Part shown: in pieces, positions 6,010 through 58,454 of the stretch
Layout of the letters: each line of letters begins with the position of its first letter
Numbering within the stretch: position 1 is the first letter of the stretch
Assembly (NCBI GenBank): GCA_043809245.1
Contig: JAZDDZ010000054.1
Span: 36,838 to 100,837 of the forward strand
Length of the DNA stretch: 64,000 nucleotides
Direction of reading: 5' to 3'
Source of the DNA: Candidatus Iainarchaeum sp.
GTDB lineage: Archaea; Iainarchaeota; Iainarchaeia; Iainarchaeales; JAZDDZ01
Notes under the pieces: model-generated
The model's input: only the letters and a program-made list of their open reading frames with translations
Databases searched by the model: none
Told to the model about the DNA's origin: nothing
Translations under genes and position numbers: made by a program

Positions 6010-6735
6010 ATGGCAAAGAGAATAAAGTCCCAGAGGGCTGGAAAGGGAAGCCCGACGTTCATGGCGACAAAGAACGGAGTAGCGGACATCAAGTACATTA
6101 CGGTTGGAGAAAAGCAGAGGGACGGAGTGTTAAAGGGAGAGGTAATTGACTTGGTTAACGACCCCGGAAGGACAAGTGTTCTCGCAAAAATAGTGTTCGA
6201 GGACGGAAGAGAGGAGTTTGTGATTGCTGCAGAGGGATTAGGTGTCGGCGACAGGATAGCGTACGGCAGGAAAGCAGGCCTTGCCATTGGAAATGTTTTG
6301 CCTTTAGGTGAATTGGTTGAAGGAGCACCTGTGTTCAACATAGAGAAAGAAATGGGTGATGGGGGAAGGATTGCCCGCGCCTCGGGGCTTTATGCTTTGA
6401 TTATGGCAAAGGACAAGGCAGGGGTAAGCGTTAAATTGCCTTCCGGCAAAATAATTGTTCTGCCGCACGAGTCCAGGGCGACTGTTGGATGCTGCGCCGC
6501 CGGGGGAAGGCCTGAAAAGCCCTTGCTTAAGGCCGGAAGCAACTGGCATAAGTTTCACGCGCGCGGCCACAAGTATCCGGGAGTACGCGGCGTTGCACAG
6601 AACCCATTGTCGCATCCATTTGGCGGTTACCAGCATCATCCTGGAAAGTCAAAGAGCACTTCAAGGCACGCTCCGCCCGGAAGAAAAGTGGGAGCGATTG
6701 CATCAAAGAGGACTGGAAGGAGAAAAAAGAATTAA
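6010..6735 (+). CDS. rpl2: Ribosomal protein uL2
   Basis: MAKRIKSQRAGKGSPTF...GRPEKPLLKAGSNWHKFHARGHKYPGVRGVAQNPLSHPFGG. Confidence 0.92.
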   Translation: MAKRIKSQRAGKGSPTFMATKNGVADIKYITVGEKQRDGVLKGEVIDLVNDPGRTSVLAKIVFEDGREEFVIAAEGLGVGDRIAYGRKAGLAIGNVLPLGELVEGAPVFNIEKEMGDGGRIARASGLYALIMAKDKAGVSVKLPSGKIIVLPHESRATVGCCAAGGRPEKPLLKAGSNWHKFHARGHKYPGVRGVAQNPLSHPFGGYQHHPGKSKSTSRHAPPGRKVGAIASKRTGRRKKN

Positions 6736-9132: not shown

Positions 9133-9162
9133 AAAATTTTGGTAACTTGTGAAGTGGTTTTT

Positions 9163-9474
9163 ATGGCTGTGAAAGGAAAAGGATATGAAATCAATGCGCG
9201 GAATTTGCTTGCGCATGAATTGATTGGCCTGCAGGCAGAGGTAATCGAAAGCACCGACAGGGGAAGAAAGGGAATCAAAGGCCGGGTTGTTGATGAGACA
9301 ATGAACGTGCTTGTTGTTGAAACCGTGAAAGGGGAGAAAAAGGTTCCGAAAAAAGAGGCAGGGTTTGTTTTTGACCTTGAAGGGGAAAAGGCGTTTGTAG
9401 AGGGCGCATTGCTTTTGGCAAGGCCGGAGGACAGGGTCAAGGTTTTTGTGAAAAAATTCAAAAAGGCATTTTGA
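9163..9474 (+). CDS. rnp1: RNase P protein component 1 (Rpp29/Pop4)
   Basis: LIGLQAEVIESTDRGRKGIKGRVVDETMNVLVVET matches the Rpp29 core. Canonical location between rpl29/SUI1 and rps17. Confidence 0.7.
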   Translation: MAVKGKGYEINARNLLAHELIGLQAEVIESTDRGRKGIKGRVVDETMNVLVVETVKGEKKVPKKEAGFVFDLEGEKAFVEGALLLARPEDRVKVFVKKFKKAF

Positions 9475-9501
9475 GGTCGGAAAAAATTTGAGGTTGTAAA
9501 A

Positions 9502-9930
9502 ATGGCGAAAGATGAAAATAAGGGAAACGCGGTAAAATGCAGTGACGTGAAATGCGCGCTGCACGGAAGCCTTAAAGTGAGGGGAAACCTTTTCACGGGA
9601 AAGGTCGTGAGCGCAAAGGCGGAAAAGACAGTTGTAGTTGAGAGGGAGATAATGCACTTTGTGCACAAATACGAGAGGTATAAGAAGACGGTTTCAAGGA
9701 TTGCGGCTTACAACCCAAAATGCATTGATGCAAAGGAAAACGACATAGTTAAAATCGGGGAGACAAGAAGGCTAAGCAAGACAAAGAGCTTTGTAGTGCT
9801 TGAAAAAATCGGCCACGCAAAGGACATAAGAAGGGAAGAGGCATTCTTTGGCGGAAGCAAAGGCGAAAAAGAATCAGCAGAAGAGGCCGTGGAAGAAAAG
9901 GAAAGCGAAAGGGAAGTTGATGAAAAATGA
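9502..9930 (+). CDS. rps17: Ribosomal protein uS17 with an acidic tail
   Basis: GKVVSAKAEKTVVVEREIMHFVHKYERYKKTVSRIAAYNP...IVKIGETRRLSKTKSFVV. Confidence 0.85.
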   Translation: MAKDENKGNAVKCSDVKCALHGSLKVRGNLFTGKVVSAKAEKTVVVEREIMHFVHKYERYKKTVSRIAAYNPKCIDAKENDIVKIGETRRLSKTKSFVVLEKIGHAKDIRREEAFFGGSKGEKESAEEAVEEKESEREVDEK

Positions 9931-49397: not shown

Positions 49398-49940
49398 ATG
49401 TCCTTGGAATTTTTTCTCCAGAACATAATTTTTGACGCCTCATTGGCTGCGGCGGCTGTCTTATTCTACCTGTTCAACAAAAAAAAGCCAGTGAAAGAGC
49501 TTTTTCTTGAAAAGCCGAAAAGCATGAGGCGCGAGCTGAAGAACACGCTTGTGCTTACCGGCGCGCTCGTGCTGGCTTCAATTGCAATAGGGCTGCTTCT
49601 ATACCCCTTTGGGCTGAATGATTCGGCTAAGGCAATTGAAAAAATAGCAGAGGTAAAGGAAATGGGTTTGTTTTTCCTAATCTACCTGTTCACTGTAAGG
49701 GTTGCGGTGGAAGAGGTTTTTTTCCGCGGCCTGCTCACGAGAAAAACAGGCGTAATAATCTCCTCTATTATTTTTGGCTTGAGCCATTTCGCTTACGGCT
49801 CGGCAATTGAATTGATTGGGGCAACTGCTTTGGGAGCGATTCTGGCAATTGCATTCAATAAAAACAGGTCAATTTATTCAAACATCCTTGCGCACTCGGC
49901 ATATAATTTTATTACTCTGGCAATGGCTGGATTGATATGA
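49398..49940 (+). CDS. CPBP-family (CAAX/Abi) intramembrane metalloprotease
   Basis: EEVFFRGLL, FGLSHFAYG and HSAYNF motifs in TM helices. Confidence 0.7.
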   Translation: MSLEFFLQNIIFDASLAAAAVLFYLFNKKKPVKELFLEKPKSMRRELKNTLVLTGALVLASIAIGLLLYPFGLNDSAKAIEKIAEVKEMGLFFLIYLFTVRVAVEEVFFRGLLTRKTGVIISSIIFGLSHFAYGSAIELIGATALGAILAIAFNKNRSIYSNILAHSAYNFITLAMAGLI

Positions 49941-50521
49941 ATGGAAAAATAAGCAAAGCCGTTGAATCGCTGCGGAAAGGCGGGGTAATAGTTTACCCCA
50001 CTGAAACAAGCTATGGGCTTGGGGCAAGCATTGAATGCATTGGAGCAATAAGGCGCATTAAAAAAATCAAGGGAAGGGATGGAAGGAAGCCTATTTCAAT
50101 AATTGTTTCCAGCGCAAAAATGGCGGAAAAATACTGTGTACTGGGAAATGATGCAAAAAAATTAATGCGTGAATTCATGCCAGGGCCTTTAACGCTTGTT
50201 GTGGATAAAAAGAAAACCGTGACAAAGGAATTAACGCGGGAAAAAACGATTGCATTCAGGGTTTCCTCAAACAGGACAGCGAATGCGATTGTGAAAGCGC
50301 TTGGAGTTCCGATAACTGCGACGAGCGCAAACAAAAGCGGGGACAAGCCGATTTATTTGGGAAAAAAAGCTGAAAAGGAATTTGCGGGAAAAGTTGATTT
50401 TGTGCTTAATGCGGGAAACCTGCGGAGACGAAAAGTTTCAACGGTTTTTTCAGTAATGGAAAAAAAAATTCTTAGAAAGGGAAAAATTAGCGAGAAGGAA
50501 ATTCTGAGGGTGCTTAAGTAA
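49937..50521 (+). CDS. tsaC: L-threonylcarbamoyladenylate synthase TsaC/Sua5 (YrdC-only form)
   Basis: GGVIVYPTETSYGLGASIEC...KGRDGRKPISIIVSS...FMPGPLTLVV. Confidence 0.8.
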   Translation: MNGKISKAVESLRKGGVIVYPTETSYGLGASIECIGAIRRIKKIKGRDGRKPISIIVSSAKMAEKYCVLGNDAKKLMREFMPGPLTLVVDKKKTVTKELTREKTIAFRVSSNRTANAIVKALGVPITATSANKSGDKPIYLGKKAEKEFAGKVDFVLNAGNLRRRKVSTVFSVMEKKILRKGKISEKEILRVLK

Positions 50522-50641
50522 TTGTTTAGGATTTGAATCAGAAATTATAACCACTCCCAATAGAGAATTTTTTCTTAGGACTCTGATTTTTCGGCTTAAA
50601 CCTTTGCACGCCTGATTTCTACTTTTAGTGCAAAGGATTTA

Positions 50642-50887
50642 ATGCCTCCAAAATCAGCAGAGACGTCCACGAAAAAATTCATTCTTTATGGAGGTGGTTC
50701 AATGGTTAAAATTCAACTCCCATCAAGGGGGAAAAGAAGGTTGGCTGAACAACTGGTTAGAATAGATCCAGAGAATTTAACCGATAAGGAACGTTGGATT
50801 CTGCAAGGGGCGATTTCTGATGCATTCCCGCATCGGAAACGCACTCCCGAAAGAGCTATAAAGAGAAAAAAGAGGAATTTATTATGA
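50642..50887 (+). CDS. Hypothetical basic 81-aa protein, translationally coupled (ATGA) to the next ORF
   Basis: ORF only. Overlaps the downstream start. Confidence 0.3.
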   Translation: MPPKSAETSTKKFILYGGGSMVKIQLPSRGKRRLAEQLVRIDPENLTDKERWILQGAISDAFPHRKRTPERAIKRKKRNLL

Positions 50888-51708
50888 ACCCGATTATAAC
50901 ACTAAACGGACTGCTTAGAGCTTATTTGTACAACAAATGGAAAAGTCCAAAAATCGAATTGATTATTTATAATGCAAAATTTGCTCAAGTGACTGAAAAA
51001 TTAAATGAAACTTTTTGTGCTATAATTGAATTTGGGAATGACCCCATATTGATAAAAAAAGCTCCATTTGGAAATAGGTTTTATTCACAAGTAAAAAATC
51101 AAACTTCCGTTCTTTCTATTGCAAAGTTAATCAGTTTAGAAGAAAAAAATATAATAAGAGAATTGGTAAAAGAAAATGGAGGCTATTACACAAAGAATGT
51201 AGAAGTGCAAATAAATCCTAGCGAATGGAACATGCAATTTCATGACTTTTTTACTGAAAGTCCTGAAGAACAACAATTGGTAAAAGAATTAGCGGAAAAC
51301 TTCAAAATGCAGAATATTACTGCAAATTCAAAAAAAGCCAAAAAATATGGCAACGGGGACATTCTTTTAACCTATCAGCAAAAGGAAGTTCCCATTGAGA
51401 TTACAATACACCCTCCAAGTTATAGACAAAAAGAAATCAAAAAAGGGATTAATGCTCCACACGGCCAAAAATGGGGAAAAGTGACCTCCAGAATTCTTCC
51501 AATGTTTATTTTTTCTGTAAACAATAAAAGCCCTTCCTTCATAATAATACATAACGATTGGAAAAAATATTCTCACACACAAAAACTTAAAGAACAGATT
51601 AAAAAATCAAAATGTTTTTTAATTTATACAAATTTCCAAAAAGATTGGGAAAAATGTGTAAGAGCAGAAATTGAAAGATTCTTAGGTGATGAACTTTGTT
51701 ATGTCTAG
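50884..51708 (+). CDS. Hypothetical 274-aa protein encoded by a conspicuously AT-rich segment, wedged between tsaC and kae1
   Basis: Long ORF in a compositionally deviant (AT-rich, N/K/I-rich) stretch. Its 3' end overlaps the TTG start of kae1. Confidence 0.4.
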   Translation: MNPIITLNGLLRAYLYNKWKSPKIELIIYNAKFAQVTEKLNETFCAIIEFGNDPILIKKAPFGNRFYSQVKNQTSVLSIAKLISLEEKNIIRELVKENGGYYTKNVEVQINPSEWNMQFHDFFTESPEEQQLVKELAENFKMQNITANSKKAKKYGNGDILLTYQQKEVPIEITIHPPSYRQKEIKKGINAPHGQKWGKVTSRILPMFIFSVNNKSPSFIIIHNDWKKYSHTQKLKEQIKKSKCFLIYTNFQKDWEKCVRAEIERFLGDELCYV

Positions 51709-52676
51709 GAATTGAAAGCACCGCACACAGCTATGCCGTTGGAATAGTTGATGAAAAATGTAGCATATTAGCTAACGAAAAACATGCTGTTATAACTGAA
51801 GAAGGGGGATTGATTCCAAGGGAGCTTGCAGAACACCACTTAAAATATGCAAAACCAGTGATTGAAAATGCCCTCAAAAAAGCAAGGGTGCAGCTAAAAG
51901 ATATTGATTTGATCGCCTTCTCTCAGGGACCAGGAATCGGCAGCGCACTGACGGTTGGAGCGGTTGCAGCCAGAGCATTGTCTTTGGCGCACGGCATTCC
52001 ATTGATTGGGGTAAACCACTGCGTGGCACACATTGAAATCGGGAGAAAGCTCACAGGGGCAAAAAACCCTTTGGTTGTTTATGTCAGCGGCGCCAACTCG
52101 CAAATCATTGGATTTGAAAGCGGAAAGTACCGCGTGTATGGTGAAACGCTTGACATTGGCCTGGGAAACCTGCTGGACAATTTTGGAAGGGCAATGGGCT
52201 TGGGTTTTCCCGCGGGGCCAAAGCTTGATGAAATGTATTTCAATGCAAAAAAACTTGTTGAATTGCCTTACAGTGTCAAGGGAATGGACTTGGTTTTCAG
52301 CGGGCTCTTGACCGCGGCAGAGCAGAAAATCGGCAAAGCGAATGAAACGGATTTGGCTTACTCGTTAATGCATACAGCGCTTGCAATGGTTTCAGAGGTC
52401 AGTGAAAGGGCTCTGGCGCACACTGAAAAAAAAGAACTTCTATTGGTTGGCGGGGTTGCTGCTTCTAGGGCTTTAAGGGAAATGCTGCAGGAAATGTGCA
52501 AAGGCCAAAAGGCAAAGTTTTTTGTTCCGCCATTCGGCGTGTGTATCGATAATGGTTTGATGATTGCATGGCAGGGGCTGCTGGAGCACGTGCACGGGAA
52601 AAGAATGGCGCTGGAGGAAACTGAAATCAACCAGCGTTTCCGCACAGACCAAGTTCAAGTGAACTGGATGAAATGA
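51696..52676 (+). CDS. kae1: tRNA N6-adenosine threonylcarbamoyltransferase Kae1 (KEOPS catalytic subunit), not fused to Bud32
   Basis: LCLGIESTAHSYAVGIV...GPGIGSALTVGAVAARALSLAHGIPLIGVNHCVAHIEIG (His pair for metal binding). Confidence 0.9.
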   Translation: MLCLGIESTAHSYAVGIVDEKCSILANEKHAVITEEGGLIPRELAEHHLKYAKPVIENALKKARVQLKDIDLIAFSQGPGIGSALTVGAVAARALSLAHGIPLIGVNHCVAHIEIGRKLTGAKNPLVVYVSGANSQIIGFESGKYRVYGETLDIGLGNLLDNFGRAMGLGFPAGPKLDEMYFNAKKLVELPYSVKGMDLVFSGLLTAAEQKIGKANETDLAYSLMHTALAMVSEVSERALAHTEKKELLLVGGVAASRALREMLQEMCKGQKAKFFVPPFGVCIDNGLMIAWQGLLEHVHGKRMALEETEINQRFRTDQVQVNWMK

Positions 52677-54193: not shown

Positions 54194-54844
54194 TTAATGG
54201 ATTGGGGTATACAATGAATGGCTGCAAATGAAGTTAAACCTGCAGCGGGCGCACTTATTGGCGTGCGGCGAGGGATTGAATTCCGTTTCACCCCTGAACA
54301 ACGAGTGAAAGCGGTTGACTGCTGAAAGGGTTTGCTCCCTTAATTCCTCGGAGAATTCCGTGAAAAGAATGGTTTCAAGTGAGCGGGAATCCCTTACACT
54401 CAGGAATACATTGGAGGGTTTGGGGAATATTTCCTGAAAGCACAGGGCATAGGCACCCAATTGCATTAGGTCTGCATTGGAGGCAGTGCTTTTTGTCTTG
54501 TCGTCAATGATTATTGCGCGGTCCTGGAAAATTTTGAGCTCGTCAATGCGGCCGTTTAAAAAAAACCTGAAGGATTTCACGCTTAACTCCCTAACAGAAA
54601 TCGGTTCAGCGGAACCCAAAACTATTTTTTCTACATAACTGTGCAGCGGCTCGCGCAGTTCTTCCGCTCCGCTTTTGAACTCCTGGAACAATTTCGCATG
54701 CTGCCTTGCGCCCGCAACCAACGCCAAGGAGAAAGGCGCCTTTATTTTTTTCACCTGCGCCAAAAAAAGCGAGTGCTCGCAGTAAAGCATCTGCTGCAGC
54801 CAGCTTACCGGTAAAAATTCCCTTTCAACCAATCCGAACATCAA
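54194..54844 (-). CDS. Stand-alone Cas4-like PD-(D/E)xK nuclease (DUF83) with a 4-Cys cluster
   Basis: N-terminal YCEHSLFL. GRIDEL...IIIDDKTKS nuclease motifs. QLGAYALCF (QxxxY). C-terminal CARCRFNFIC. Confidence 0.58.
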   Translation of the reverse strand: MMFGLVEREFLPVSWLQQMLYCEHSLFLAQVKKIKAPFSLALVAGARQHAKLFQEFKSGAEELREPLHSYVEKIVLGSAEPISVRELSVKSFRFFLNGRIDELKIFQDRAIIIDDKTKSTASNADLMQLGAYALCFQEIFPKPSNVFLSVRDSRSLETILFTEFSEELREQTLSAVNRFHSLFRGETEFNPSPHANKCARCRFNFICSHSLYTPIH

Positions 54845-54944: not shown

Positions 54945-57900
54945 TTGGCAATGAAAAAAGCAATTTTGCTCGGGGTTCTGCTGTTATCGCTGTTTTCCCT
55001 TAGCGTTCATGCAAGCGAATGCGATAGCCCTAAACCAAACTGGTTTTTCTGCCACGATTTTGAAGCTTCTGATTCAGGGAATTTCGCAAAGTACTGGGAT
55101 GATTTCGGGGACTTGGTTACAGCAAACAGGGAGATAGCCCTTAGAAACGAGAACGTACCCAGCCTTGAAGGCACAAAGAGCGTAAGGTTTCTGATAAAGA
55201 ACGAAACAGGAAGCGCAATTTCCGCTGTCGGAGCAGGGTTCAAAAAATTCTTTGGCACGGCATACAGCCAAGTGGGCTATGACACTGTTTACTACCGCTT
55301 CTACTTCCGCCTCAACGAGCAATGGAGCCATGGCTGGGGCATGCACTGGCTGAGCTTAAGCGGCTGCAACGTAAACAGCAATGTATGGGGCTGCATGGGA
55401 ACAGCAGGCCTTAAGCCTGATGGAACCAACTGGTTTTCAGTTGGCACAGACCTTTGGACAAACTGGGAAAGCATTCCCGCACCAGGCGAAATTGTTACAT
55501 ATTCTTATCACATGGACCTAACCCCTGATGGCCATGGCGATTACTTTGGGGAGAACATGACCCCGCACCCGGGAATTTCACCTGAAAGGGGAAAATGGCA
55601 TGTCATCGAGATGATGGGAAAATCAAACACCCCGGGATTGTATGATGGCGAACAAAAAATCTGGTTTGACGGCAAGCTAGTCGGAAATTATTCAGGCATT
55701 AGATGGCGCTCAACAAACGACGTTAAAATTACATACGCGGGCTTCTACATCTACATCCACAACCCCCCCGCAAATTCACTGAACTACATTGACAACGACA
55801 ACGTGGTTTTCAGCACCTCCTATATAGGCCCCGCAAAATGCGTTGACAGTGTTTCAATTGAAGCCCCGTGCTATTGTGGTGGAACGCCTTCTCCAACCAA
55901 TTCATCCAATATTTATGCAAGCGGAGTCTGCCTTGGCAATGTTTGGTATGAATCCAATGCACAATGCACTGTAAACGGCCAGACAAGAAGCTGCTCAACA
56001 GGGAAGAACGGAATCTGTGCAACAGGAACACAAACATGCTCAGGGGGAAACTGGGGCACGTGCATTCAAAACCTGCAGGCAGGAAACGAAGTGTGCGATG
56101 ATGCAGGCAATTTGGACGAGGACTGCGATGGCCTGAGTAACTGTGATGACACAGGCTGTTCCACTAATCCAGCCTGCCAGTCTGCGGAGGAGACTTATTA
56201 CATTTTCGGTGGCGCAACCGATAATTACTGGCCTGGCGCCTATCCTGATTCAAGCGACAGCATCACAAGAACCACTAACAACCCTGCCGCTGGAACCCAT
56301 AACCTGCAGTTCCCTTCAACTGGCGCGTGGATGAATGTAAATATTTATGGAGTTTCAATTCCGACAGCTGACTTGGACTGGGCAAATTCTTATCTGGAAT
56401 TCAAAATTTCCACCTCCGCGCCTGTTGGCTATATGGAAGCGCATTTGGGTTCCAGCAGCGGCGCCTATCCCTACAAAACTTTCACAACAACAGGAACTGG
56501 TTATGACACAATACGGATTAACCTAACTGATTTTGCCGCGACAAAAGCCGCATTTGGCAGTTCAATCGCGGGCTTCTTCATCGGCGGAGGCTGGCCAGCT
56601 TCAACTGTTTACATTGACGAAATCAAAATCGTTTCACCCGGAACAAGCCCACAGCCGTGCACGGAAAACTGGAGCTGCACTACATGGAGCAGCTGTGTGA
56701 ACAACCAACAGACACGCACCTGCACGGATTTGGCCGGATGCGGCACCACGGCAAACAAGCCGATTGAAACGCAAACATGCACAACCTGCACGGAGCAATG
56801 GAGCTGCACGCAATGGAGCGCATGCAGCAACGGTTCACAATCACGCACTTGCTCTGATCCAAACCCTTCAACAACAAATTGCCCCGCGCTTCCAAAACCA
56901 ATGGAAACTCAGAGTTGCACTGTCGGGCAGGTTTGTGAAACAACGGCCGAACACTGCAAATACGCGAGCAACCGCACGGATTCAGGAACCGGCAGCTTCA
57001 GCGACCCCTGGAACATTTCCCAGGCGTTCACAAATGCTTCTGCGGGAGACCTTGTTTATTTCAGGGGCGGGGAATATGATGTAAGCGCCGGCACACCACA
57101 GATAACCACCTCCGGTACTTCGGATGCCTGGATAACCTTCAAGGCATATCCTGAGGAAAATCCACACCTCGACGCAAAATATATGGGGAAATGCCCGATT
57201 GAATTATATCAGGTCAGAAATATCATTATTGATGGCTTCGAGATTTCAGGGATAGGTGAAGGTCCCTCAGGCGAAACCTGTGGCGGAGGCATCTATCTAA
57301 AAGGTTCTGCAGATTTGAAGGGGGAAAATATTACTATAAGGAACAACGATTTGCACGGGCTGGAACTATGCACCATAGGGACAATATGCACCAACAGGGG
57401 GCTGATAAAAACCTATGAATACAATAACGTGATTATTGAGAACAACACCATTCATGACATAACTTCCGGAACTTATGGCGGGAACAATACTGCAGGAATT
57501 TACATCATGTCAGGGGGATTATTTGGCCGGCCATATGACGGGATAAATATGATAATCAGGAATAACCACATATACAACATGTTCGGCCAGGTGCTTTGCA
57601 TAAAGCACAAGTACCCAAACCACGGCCCCTACTTAATTGAAGGCAATACACTTCATGACTGTGCCACAGCTTTTTATACAAGCGGTCTGGATGAGGCGAT
57701 ATTCCGGAATAATTTGATTTATAATGTTACTCTTGGAATAGATGACGCTGGTTACCAAGTCGGTTCCTGGAACTACACTGCTGAGCCTTTTGAAATTACA
57801 AATAATACTTTCTACAGCATATATGTTGCGGCATTGATATTCAGGGACAACGATATCACTCCGAGAATAATTGAAAAAAATATTTTTGTTGACTCAAGCG

Positions 57901-58454
57901 GCAGCGGTGGAGCAGACAATTCGGCGGATATTTCCATAAGGGAGCCAGTATCCTATGTTGGAATTGAAAGTAATGCCAATTGTGTCTGGTATCCTGGCTC
58001 GCAATATCATGTGAGATACCATAACCCCTATAGCTGTTCAGGAGGATGCCTTAGTTTTGAAGGGGCGCAACTGAGCCCTTATTTTTATGATTTGGATTCA
58101 GTCAAGCTCAGTGATTCCCAGGCCGCGGGCCTTTTCGTGAACCCCCCCGCAGGCGATTTCCATCTCAACAACCCTTCGCTGTGCCCTGGAATAGGCGCAT
58201 ATGCAAATGCACTGCAGTGCACGGTAAATGTTGCGACGCCCTGCACGATTTTCCTCGCTGGCGGGACAATAAGCGCCTGCTCACAGCAGAGCCTGATTTA
58301 CCAGTATGATGCAACAGCAACAGTAAACAACACTGTAAACGGCCTGCAGGCGAATAAATCGCATGACATAAAAATTGAGAACATCACGCAGGGAACGGAG
58401 CAGAACATTTCAGCAACCACCAACTCAAACGGAGTGCTGCAATTCAATTCATGA
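54945..58454 (+). CDS. Secreted 1169-aa protein: N-terminal domain, MopE-like Asp/Cys motif, TSP1-like W-S-C repeats, and a right-handed parallel beta-helix repeat region
   Basis: Signal MAMKKAILLGVLLLSLFSLSVHASE. VCDDAGNLDEDCDGLSNCDD. WSCTTWSSCVNNQQTRTCTDLAGCG / WSCTQWSACSNGSQSRTCSD. PbH1-like repeats NNDLHG / NNTIHD / RNNHIYN / EGNTLHD / RNNLIYN / TNNTFYS. Confidence 0.7.
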   Translation: MAMKKAILLGVLLLSLFSLSVHASECDSPKPNWFFCHDFEASDSGNFAKYWDDFGDLVTANREIALRNENVPSLEGTKSVRFLIKNETGSAISAVGAGFKKFFGTAYSQVGYDTVYYRFYFRLNEQWSHGWGMHWLSLSGCNVNSNVWGCMGTAGLKPDGTNWFSVGTDLWTNWESIPAPGEIVTYSYHMDLTPDGHGDYFGENMTPHPGISPERGKWHVIEMMGKSNTPGLYDGEQKIWFDGKLVGNYSGIRWRSTNDVKITYAGFYIYIHNPPANSLNYIDNDNVVFSTSYIGPAKCVDSVSIEAPCYCGGTPSPTNSSNIYASGVCLGNVWYESNAQCTVNGQTRSCSTGKNGICATGTQTCSGGNWGTCIQNLQAGNEVCDDAGNLDEDCDGLSNCDDTGCSTNPACQSAEETYYIFGGATDNYWPGAYPDSSDSITRTTNNPAAGTHNLQFPSTGAWMNVNIYGVSIPTADLDWANSYLEFKISTSAPVGYMEAHLGSSSGAYPYKTFTTTGTGYDTIRINLTDFAATKAAFGSSIAGFFIGGGWPASTVYIDEIKIVSPGTSPQPCTENWSCTTWSSCVNNQQTRTCTDLAGCGTTANKPIETQTCTTCTEQWSCTQWSACSNGSQSRTCSDPNPSTTNCPALPKPMETQSCTVGQVCETTAEHCKYASNRTDSGTGSFSDPWNISQAFTNASAGDLVYFRGGEYDVSAGTPQITTSGTSDAWITFKAYPEENPHLDAKYMGKCPIELYQVRNIIIDGFEISGIGEGPSGETCGGGIYLKGSADLKGENITIRNNDLHGLELCTIGTICTNRGLIKTYEYNNVIIENNTIHDITSGTYGGNNTAGIYIMSGGLFGRPYDGINMIIRNNHIYNMFGQVLCIKHKYPNHGPYLIEGNTLHDCATAFYTSGLDEAIFRNNLIYNVTLGIDDAGYQVGSWNYTAEPFEITNNTFYSIYVAALIFRDNDITPRIIEKNIFVDSSGSGGADNSADISIREPVSYVGIESNANCVWYPGSQYHVRYHNPYSCSGGCLSFEGAQLSPYFYDLDSVKLSDSQAAGLFVNPPAGDFHLNNPSLCPGIGAYANALQCTVNVATPCTIFLAGGTISACSQQSLIYQYDATATVNNTVNGLQANKSHDIKIENITQGTEQNISATTNSNGVLQFNS

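Follow-up and report, generated by a model that had tools for sequence, protein, structure and literature searches.

A nuclease-like gene with its own kae1 5' end: a probable selfish insertion in the kae1 gene of an Iainarchaeum genome and of related archaea

Why should two genes of no evident family lie between tsaC/sua5 and kae1, two genes of the t6A modification of transfer RNA (tRNA)? The question is raised by a stretch of 64,000 nucleotides (nt) of Candidatus Iainarchaeum sp. (assembly GCA_043809245.1, contig JAZDDZ010000054.1, positions 36,838 to 100,837 of the forward strand), hereafter the window, whose overall GC fraction is 0.453. The genome was assembled from a metagenome and belongs to Candidatus Diapherotrites, among the DPANN archaea. 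An initial annotation had offered two readings of these open reading frames (ORFs), namely highly divergent accessory subunits of KEOPS, the complex in which Kae1 normally works, or a horizontally inserted gene pair. Our analysis speaks against the former and supports the latter in a sharper form, as a nuclease cassette with a replacement kae1 5' end. We put at roughly 60 % the overall reading that window positions 50523-51695 are a selfish insertion of about 1.2 kb in the 5' coding end of kae1, of the kind known as a homing-type mobile ORF. That the insertion carries a replacement for the kae1 5' end appears to us highly probable, and for the further proposition that the nuclease itself drives homing we regard the odds as even. 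The features of the locus, all on the forward strand, are the following (aa, amino acids; loci from other genomes are designated by L numbers).

49937..50521 (+): tsaC/sua5, the context gene upstream (Pfam Sua5_yciO_yrdC, 1.2e-46; TIGR00057, 2.3e-51)
50523..50540 (+): decayed remnant of the original kae1 5' end, TGTTTAGGATTTGAATCA, reading C-L-G-F-E-S, about codons 3-8; the left insertion boundary
50548..50700 (+): long imperfect hairpin of 153 nt with 42 base pairs, conserved in the window, L002/L093/L094, L003 and L084
50702..50887 (+): small ORF of 61 aa, in the version annotated by NCBI; a possible alternative start at 50642 gives 81 aa
50821..50883 (+): relic of a nuclease N-terminal extension, CIPASETHSRKSYKEKKEEFI, which is in the nuclease frame but lacks a start codon here
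50884..51708 (+): orf274, a two-domain nuclease-like protein with a beta domain at about aa 1-110 and a PD-(D/E)xK-like domain at aa 112-272
51685..51719 (+): cassette-borne replacement kae1 5' end, consisting of a Shine-Dalgarno (SD)-like GGTGAT at 51685-51690, the TTG at 51696 and codons 1-8
51696..52676 (+): kae1, the functional full-length target gene (arch_KAE1, 1.5e-133; PRK09605 positions 1-327)

Every feature named in the initial annotation was recovered within 1-2 nt of its reported position. Pfam and NCBIfam profile matches bear out TsaC (49937-50521) and Kae1 (51696-52676) as the flanking genes, both intervening ORFs are present (50642-50887, 81 aa; 50884-51708, 274 aa), they overlap through an ATGA at 50884-50887, and the TTG of kae1 at 51696 falls within the final codons of orf274. 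With this TTG as the start the Kae1 profile alignment begins at residue 1.

The evidence for insertion lies on the far side of the two ORFs. In the window the tsaC stop codon directly adjoins the old kae1 start, as it does in relatives whose site is empty, and immediately after this stop begins a short leftover of kae1 that has lost its start codon. An 18-mer pattern drawn from the kae1 starts of other genomes finds this remnant once in the 64 kb and never in 100 shuffles, even at 2 mismatches, and with a hidden Markov model (HMM) of the Kae1 N-terminus the remnant is the best match in the window other than kae1 itself. These two tools were adopted because a simple local alignment of nucleotides between the kae1 5' end and the upstream DNA is too insensitive. 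Related loci preserve longer leftovers: 27 codons in L088 (MLCLGIEGTAHTFGVGIVDSRGKVLAM, E = 7e-17), 23 codons, cut by the contig end, in L090 from the same population (E = 3e-13) and 31 codons in L091 (E = 3.5e-16). Shorter ones occur in L085/L086, with MICLGIES right after the gene for ribosomal protein S27e (E = 0.005), and at the boundaries in L084 (MKCLGI, right after sua5) and L001 (FCLGIE). The window and L085 break at the identical base, directly after …TTGAATCA, and continue with similar element ends. The leftovers define two insertion points in two sub-lineages, site A after about codon 6-8 (window, L085, L084 and L001) and site B after about codon 27 (L088/L090 and L091). L001, from a second Diapherotrites genome, additionally has a 208-aa ORF (9156-9782) between tsaC and the kae1 remnant, with weak class-I methyltransferase-like matches; these matches and its position upstream of the remnant rule it out as Bud32 or as a part of the cassette.

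At the opposite end the replacement codons overlap the last codons of orf274 and are in frame with the rest of kae1, an arrangement shared by L001, L002, L003, L084 and L087. As a second, leftover kae1 5' end is present on the far side, the functional 5' end must belong to the right end of the cassette, and as it is fused in frame to the remainder of the gene kae1 stays functional. From left to right the cassette thus comprises the leftover of the kae1 start, the hairpin, the small ORF, the nuclease gene, and the replacement SD, start codon and first codons of kae1. The two copies can also be told apart by composition. In L088 the GC fraction at third codon positions (GC3) is 0.78 in the remnant and 0.54 in the rest of kae1, as against 0.37 in the carried 27-codon copy and 0.38 in the nuclease gene (remnant versus carried copy, Fisher p = 0.005), with the switch at about codon 30.

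In the window the AT-rich dip noted at the outset is confirmed on calculation, with orf274 having a GC of 0.302 and a GC3 of 0.251 versus a GC3 of 0.40-0.60 in the neighboring genes. Such low GC is specific to the host, since the homolog in L001 (locus GC 0.305) is not deviant, and at every locus checked the nuclease gene is lower in GC than the kae1 sequence downstream of it. The low GC of the first ~180 nt of kae1 was considered as a foreign co-conversion tract and rejected, as empty-site relatives have the same profile.

A family member lies directly upstream of, or overlaps, kae1 in 11 lineages (window, L001, L002/L093/L094, L003, L084, L085/L086, L087, L088-L090, L091, L095 and L096), in which the proteins are 28-58 % identical. 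This linkage covers every close or moderately distant member with a readable contig. The occurrence of the same ORFs at unrelated loci of related genomes, named beforehand as an observation that would speak against the initial reading, was not seen, close homologs being always at kae1. The genes further upstream vary, and include tsaC, the gene for ribosomal protein S27e, deoxyhypusine synthase with an unknown ORF, and a minus-strand gene. The constant adjacency to kae1 is accounted for by the insertion of the cassette into kae1, as the leftover 5' end on the far side indicates. Two distant family members with examined context, in L092 and L097, are not at kae1.

The presence of the insert among relatives is patchy. 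In the nearest relatives with enough upstream sequence (L007, L008 and L009) the tsaC-kae1 synteny is uninterrupted, tsaC abutting kae1 with no cassette, and the nuclease gene was found in none of 80 Kae1 loci of GTDB species representatives; ATGATTTGTTTAGGTATTGAATCAACTGCACATAC is an example of an empty kae1 5' region. It is likewise lacking in L004, L005 and L006, whose Kae1 proteins are 72, 70 and 66 % identical to that of the window, while those of the occupied L094 and L001 are 67 and 63 % identical. On the Kae1 identity matrix the occupied loci (window, L001, L094 and L084) are thus interspersed with the empty ones (L004-L009). L004 (JAFCCG010000013.1) belongs to a metagenome-assembled genome labeled 'Chloroflexi bacterium', has an archaeal Kae1 and an Rce1-like/tsaC/kae1 gene order of archaeal type, and is probably a mis-binned contig; it also has a 240-aa ORF between tsaC and kae1.

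The product of orf274 has a nuclease-like fold with invariant acidic residues. A very confident AlphaFold2 model computed with the family alignment (predicted local distance difference test, pLDDT, 94.8; predicted template-modeling score, pTM, 0.88) has a beta domain at the N-terminus followed by an alpha/beta domain at the C-terminus, and in this model the latter displays the alpha-beta-beta-beta-alpha-beta order of the PD-(D/E)xK core. Candidate catalytic residues are E125, immediately ahead of helix 1, D159, which opens strand 2, and, within strand 3, E172-x-T174. Across 38 diverse family members no alignment column other than D159 and E172 is invariant; E125 is nearly invariant in the kae1-linked subfamily, where Thr174 is invariant at the Lys position. 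The best-supported Foldseek matches are Bax1, Cdn1, SfsA, EcoT38I, Hjc (probability 0.96-0.98), Mus81 and viral 'restriction endonuclease' models, and PD-(D/E)xK nucleases, among them also Hef, XisH and BsoBI, make up the majority of the higher-probability matches.

By sequence the family stands apart: orf274 and the small ORF gave nothing above noise against Pfam, NCBIfam, PADLOC and PHROGs, and orf274 matched nothing in the PDB, whether by sequence or by profile. A word-indexed search of 5.8 billion proteins returned 3 relatives of orf274, and an exhaustive profile search of 1.84 billion representatives brought the family to 54 proteins. All members with any name are 'hypothetical', and the final alignment search gave no further names. 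A Pfam scan of all 38 family members detected only winged helix-turn-helix (wHTH) DNA-binding domains, situated in N-terminal extensions of some distant members, and a metagenome scan recovered only the L002 population again. We conclude that orf274 represents an uncatalogued, divergent family of restriction-endonuclease fold, with nuclease activity as the function suggested by the model.

Based on the mobile-ORF-like architecture, and on PD-(D/E)xK being a class of homing endonucleases, we propose that the cassette spreads by homing. The nuclease would cut a cassette-free kae1 near the insertion point, at codon 8 or 27; repair from an occupied allele, with the remnant and the body of kae1 as homology arms, would then bring in the cassette and, with it, the kae1 start that it carries. 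The scheme infers cleavage and target specificity, as well as self-immunity and a route of DNA exchange.

Several observations weigh against this proposal. No remnant was detected in L002, L003, L087, L095 and L096, and that of the window amounts to only 18-21 nt. The remnant and the carried copy differ little in their closeness to host relatives (67 versus 62 % and 62 versus 58 %). Carried copies keep an intact junction, and we found no consistent difference between occupied and empty alleles that would explain self-immunity. The canonical Lys of (D/E)xK is replaced by Thr174, the Foldseek E-values are at least 1e-3 for the full model and at least 0.04 for the domain, with template-modeling (TM) scores of 0.37-0.47, and a scan of viral contigs yielded no relatives of orf274. 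Homing would also require DNA to pass between DPANN cells. Finally, with nucleases as old and divergent as those of the 11 lineages, vertical inheritance accompanied by repeated precise loss through the duplicated 5' ends is a possible history.

The DNA between the left boundary and the nuclease gene contains the hairpin and the small ORF. The inverted repeat reported in front of the small ORF does exist, with a stem that is perfect at 9 of 9 positions (CCTTTGCAC at 50601-50609 and GTGCAAAGG at 50629-50637) and not at 8 of 9 as described; it is only the tip of the 153-nt hairpin, which forms a single rod with no multi-helix junction. The minimum free energy is -52.5 kcal/mol (z = -6.0; a second z value is -8.4), and in an RNAalifold consensus of 4 sequences 13 of the 42 pairs show compensatory double changes. 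In the alignment 94.6 % of cells are paired, a value attained by none of 500 shuffles, and controls with a slid register collapse. A GGAGGTG Shine-Dalgarno of the small ORF is located in the 3' arm, where it is predicted to pair with an anti-SD at the 5' end. The hairpin may thereby keep the translation of the small ORF and of the coupled nuclease low, while kae1 would be translated from its own SD inside the final nuclease codons. Counting G-U pairs and A-C mismatches does not separate action as RNA from action as DNA. An Rfam search of 50300-51100 gave a best E of 0.66, with nothing near its gathering score. A dispersed repeat resembling a miniature inverted-repeat transposable element was also considered and rejected, as a covariance model searched against the window and 20 loci convincingly finds cassette copies only; outside these it has one weak match, in L001 (E ~0.1).

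The small ORF has a conserved N-terminal region of about 40 aa (MV.IQ.P...PE.L.D.E.W.LQ) with homologs in L003 and L084. The hairpin extends into the first 20 codons of its 81-aa version; these codons show poor conservation at the protein level and, in L003, lie out of frame. The initial annotation was right that an 81-aa basic ORF is present, but its basic C-terminal tail is an out-of-frame read-through of the region encoding the nuclease N-terminal extension. The relic CIPASETHSRKSYKEKKEEFI is homologous to MTSPARHFQSNYKDSKEIFSM in L003 and MTPPERKSGSDYKDSKMNLNM in L084, and frame analysis places a 1-nt shift at the small-ORF/nuclease stop-start junction of the window relative to these two loci. 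This shift removes the start of the conserved extension, so that translation of the small ORF continues across it in a different frame, which yields the basic tail. Together with the lost start codon of the remnant, the shift suggests that the window element may be in early decay, as in the decay phase of a homing cycle.

The small ORF also bears on the rival that fares best, an addiction-like, toxin-antitoxin (TA)-like or defense-like pair of a small DNA-binding or neutralizing protein and a nuclease toxin lodged at kae1. Such a pair would be retained since its loss would disrupt the expression of an essential gene, and would spread passively by recombination in the flanking kae1 with no cutting of a target site. 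Its two genes do overlap in their stop and start codons (ATGA), the kae1 translation signals are embedded in the 3' end of the nuclease gene, and in L091 the small ORF is replaced by an AbrB/MazE-like protein (E = 8e-5; 23.0 bits, under the cut-off of 24.7). However, the window proteins have no PADLOC or TA-family match, L001 and L085 lack the small ORF and L002 has it only in decayed form, and TA modules are not site-specific, yet 11 lineages have the cassette at kae1, at two defined positions and with a duplicated target end. We therefore hold this explanation to be improbable.

Distinctly less probable still is a lineage-specific partner of Kae1, either a divergent or replacement KEOPS subunit or a domesticated tRNA-acting nuclease fold, co-translated with Kae1 for stoichiometric assembly. 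In its favor are the strict adjacency and translational coupling to kae1 across divergent lineages, and the location of distant members beside elp3 and a wyosine radical-SAM gene, both tRNA-modification genes. The absence of recognizable kinase and Pcc1 motifs reported earlier agrees with the profile searches, which gave no kinase, Cgi121 or Pcc1 signal: neither ORF matches the Bud32, Cgi121, Pcc1 or Pcc2 families in Pfam or NCBIfam at E <= 1, and the 50 best matches listed in either Foldseek search include no KEOPS subunit. The predicted fold is instead a beta domain joined to PD-(D/E)xK. The gene is absent in the six nearest Kae1 relatives (L004-L009), three of which (L007-L009) have intact tsaC-kae1 junctions, and the very existence of these natural cassette-free relatives implies normal t6A levels in them. 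The family has just 54 proteins, and the leftover kae1 5' ends and foreign composition point to insertion and not to co-evolution. The kae1 neighborhood here would accordingly reflect parasitism rather than partnership, which corrects a tempting functional inference. Barely credible is a larger integrative element, of plasmid or viral origin, that an integrase brought to the kae1 5' end and that was later trimmed to the cassette between attL and attR: direct repeats of a target-gene end around foreign DNA are typical of integrase-mediated integration, as established for tRNA genes and icd, such repeats do flank the cassette, and in L095 a gene with a Phage_integrase domain follows kae1 at a distance of about 1.3 kb, but none of the 11 cassettes has an integrase inside, their content is constant at a length of always ~1-1.2 kb (hairpin, small ORF and nuclease only), the repeat copies are strongly different at synonymous sites with no identical core, and the scan of viral contigs gave no relatives.

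Returning to the homing-type insertion, the distant family members away from kae1 raise the possibility of further targets. In L097 (2424-4167) a member 23 % identical to orf274 lies 1 nt upstream of an Elp3 gene (ELP3_N + Radical_SAM); the DNA upstream of this member bears a weak resemblance to the N-terminus of Elp3 (equalled by 10 of 1000 shuffles, p ~0.01), with no ELP3_N profile match there. The gene elp3 may be a second target gene of the family. The L092 member P0031 (1094-2146), which is fused to a wHTH domain, has a NucS_C-like gene on one side and a wyosine-type radical-SAM gene on the other, with no flanking duplication and a slight GC dip (0.42 versus 0.45).

Two kae1 genes with a cassette upstream are themselves interrupted. 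In L085 (2700-2725), and identically in L086, an independent sample, a 16-nt insert interrupts the functional kae1 at codon 10/11, at a distance of two codons from insertion site A, with UAGUUUAACUGCAGAA standing between GCUC and AUACC. It folds as a canonical bulge-helix-bulge (BHB), comprising an exon-exon helix, a 4-bp CUGC/GCAG helix and 3-nt bulges UCU and AAA, and cuts placed behind the second base of each bulge restore ...GTAHTFGV.... A candidate BHB mini-intron of 13 nt occurs in kae1 of L096 (~6178-6190) at about codon 81, where AAGAUUUCCCUAA separates GGGGUU from AGGUGCC; it has the helix-bulge architecture of the L085 insert, and its removal restores P-G-L-G-A-C-L-R-V-G. The same split of kae1 is found on a sister contig from JGI 3300072015. 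In both inserts it is cutting after the second base of each 3-nt bulge that restores the exact conserved frame. The first report of BHB introns in protein genes of archaea concerned crenarchaeal cbf5 (PMC2738675), and a splicing endonuclease of broad specificity is known from the DPANN archaeon ARMAN-2 (PMC12397907). With these mini-introns kae1 would join the few protein-coding genes of archaea that have introns of the splicing-endonuclease type.

These observations allow a wider and distinctly tentative generalization, which we think somewhat more apt to fail than to hold. The cassettes could represent an undescribed class of archaeal chromosomal homing elements, in which endonucleases of PD-(D/E)xK fold spread among DPANN and perhaps other archaea, cut essential genes of tRNA modification at their 5' ends (two sites in kae1, and perhaps elp3), and are copied in with a replacement 5' end and with expression throttled by the hairpin; BHB mini-introns might then be a by-product, or a counter-measure that disrupts the nuclease target sites in the DNA. 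Elsewhere in the window, about 1.5 kb downstream of kae1, there is a stand-alone Cas4/PD-(D/E)xK-family protein gene (54194-54844, minus strand; PDDEXK_1, 1e-11), beside which a 1169-aa ORF (54945-58454, plus strand) encodes a protein with a signal-peptide-like N-terminus and rich in Cys repeats.

Among known systems, e14 and phage 21 at icd of E. coli, and elements in tRNA genes, place foreign DNA between two copies of a gene end and supply the functional copy. They depend on an integrase, replace the 3' end of the gene and extend over many kilobases. The cassette resembles them in being bounded by two copies of the kae1 end, of which it supplies the functional one, and is unlike them in having no recombinase. 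With the PD-(D/E)xK nucleases (Hjc, Bax1, SfsA, type II restriction enzymes and the intron-encoded homing enzyme I-Ssp6803I) orf274 shares the predicted core and the Glu/Asp/Glu placement, and as in SfsA a beta domain precedes the nuclease domain. It differs from them in having no sequence match to a Pfam, NCBIfam or PDB family, in the Thr that takes the place of the motif Lys, and in TM scores of only ~0.4. The nuclease family is absent from every database searched, and its enzymes are candidate rare-cutting endonucleases with long conserved targets. PD-(D/E)xK is one of six recognized homing-endonuclease families (PMC6083498).

Free-standing homing endonucleases of phages (T4 seg/mob, F-CphI) and 'fractured genes' likewise consist of a stand-alone nuclease gene at or in a conserved gene with a patchy distribution (PMC2790892, PMC6083498, PMC2677866), and a spread by double-strand break with co-conversion of the flanks is proposed in both cases. 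The phage enzymes are situated between genes or split-intein halves, do not duplicate or replace a 5' end, belong to other nuclease families and reside in phage genomes. A closer parallel in architecture is offered by the mobile ORFs (mORFs) of fungal mitochondria, in which an endonuclease ORF homes into atp6, atp9, cox2 or nad3 together with a foreign C-terminal segment, leaving the native C-terminus as a remnant, as in Allomyces macrogynus atp6 and Glomus atp6, atp9, cox2 and nad3 (PMC3630166). As in mORFs, a free-standing endonuclease gene sits in a conserved protein gene, a foreign gene terminus is carried along and fused in frame, the native terminus is left as a diverged remnant, and close relatives differ in presence or absence. 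Unlike mORFs, which replace the 3' end, the cassette replaces the 5' end and hence the N-terminus, so that the two are mirror images; it is found in an archaeal chromosome and not in a mitochondrion, has a PD-(D/E)xK-like fold and not LAGLIDADG or GIY-YIG, and possesses a hairpin leader and a small ORF, its mobility being the part that is deduced.

In the literature searched we found no link of kae1 with a relevant homing endonuclease and no description of such a cassette in archaeal chromosomes. The cassette could serve as a natural marker of DNA exchange among DPANN archaea, whose mechanisms of gene flow are poorly understood. The gene-end-replacing mobile ORF is a known kind of element; new here are its occurrence in archaea, its 5' polarity, the family of the nuclease, the choice of kae1 as target and the hairpin. 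The cassette would extend the strategy to the chromosomes of archaea and to a universal essential gene, at its 5' end.

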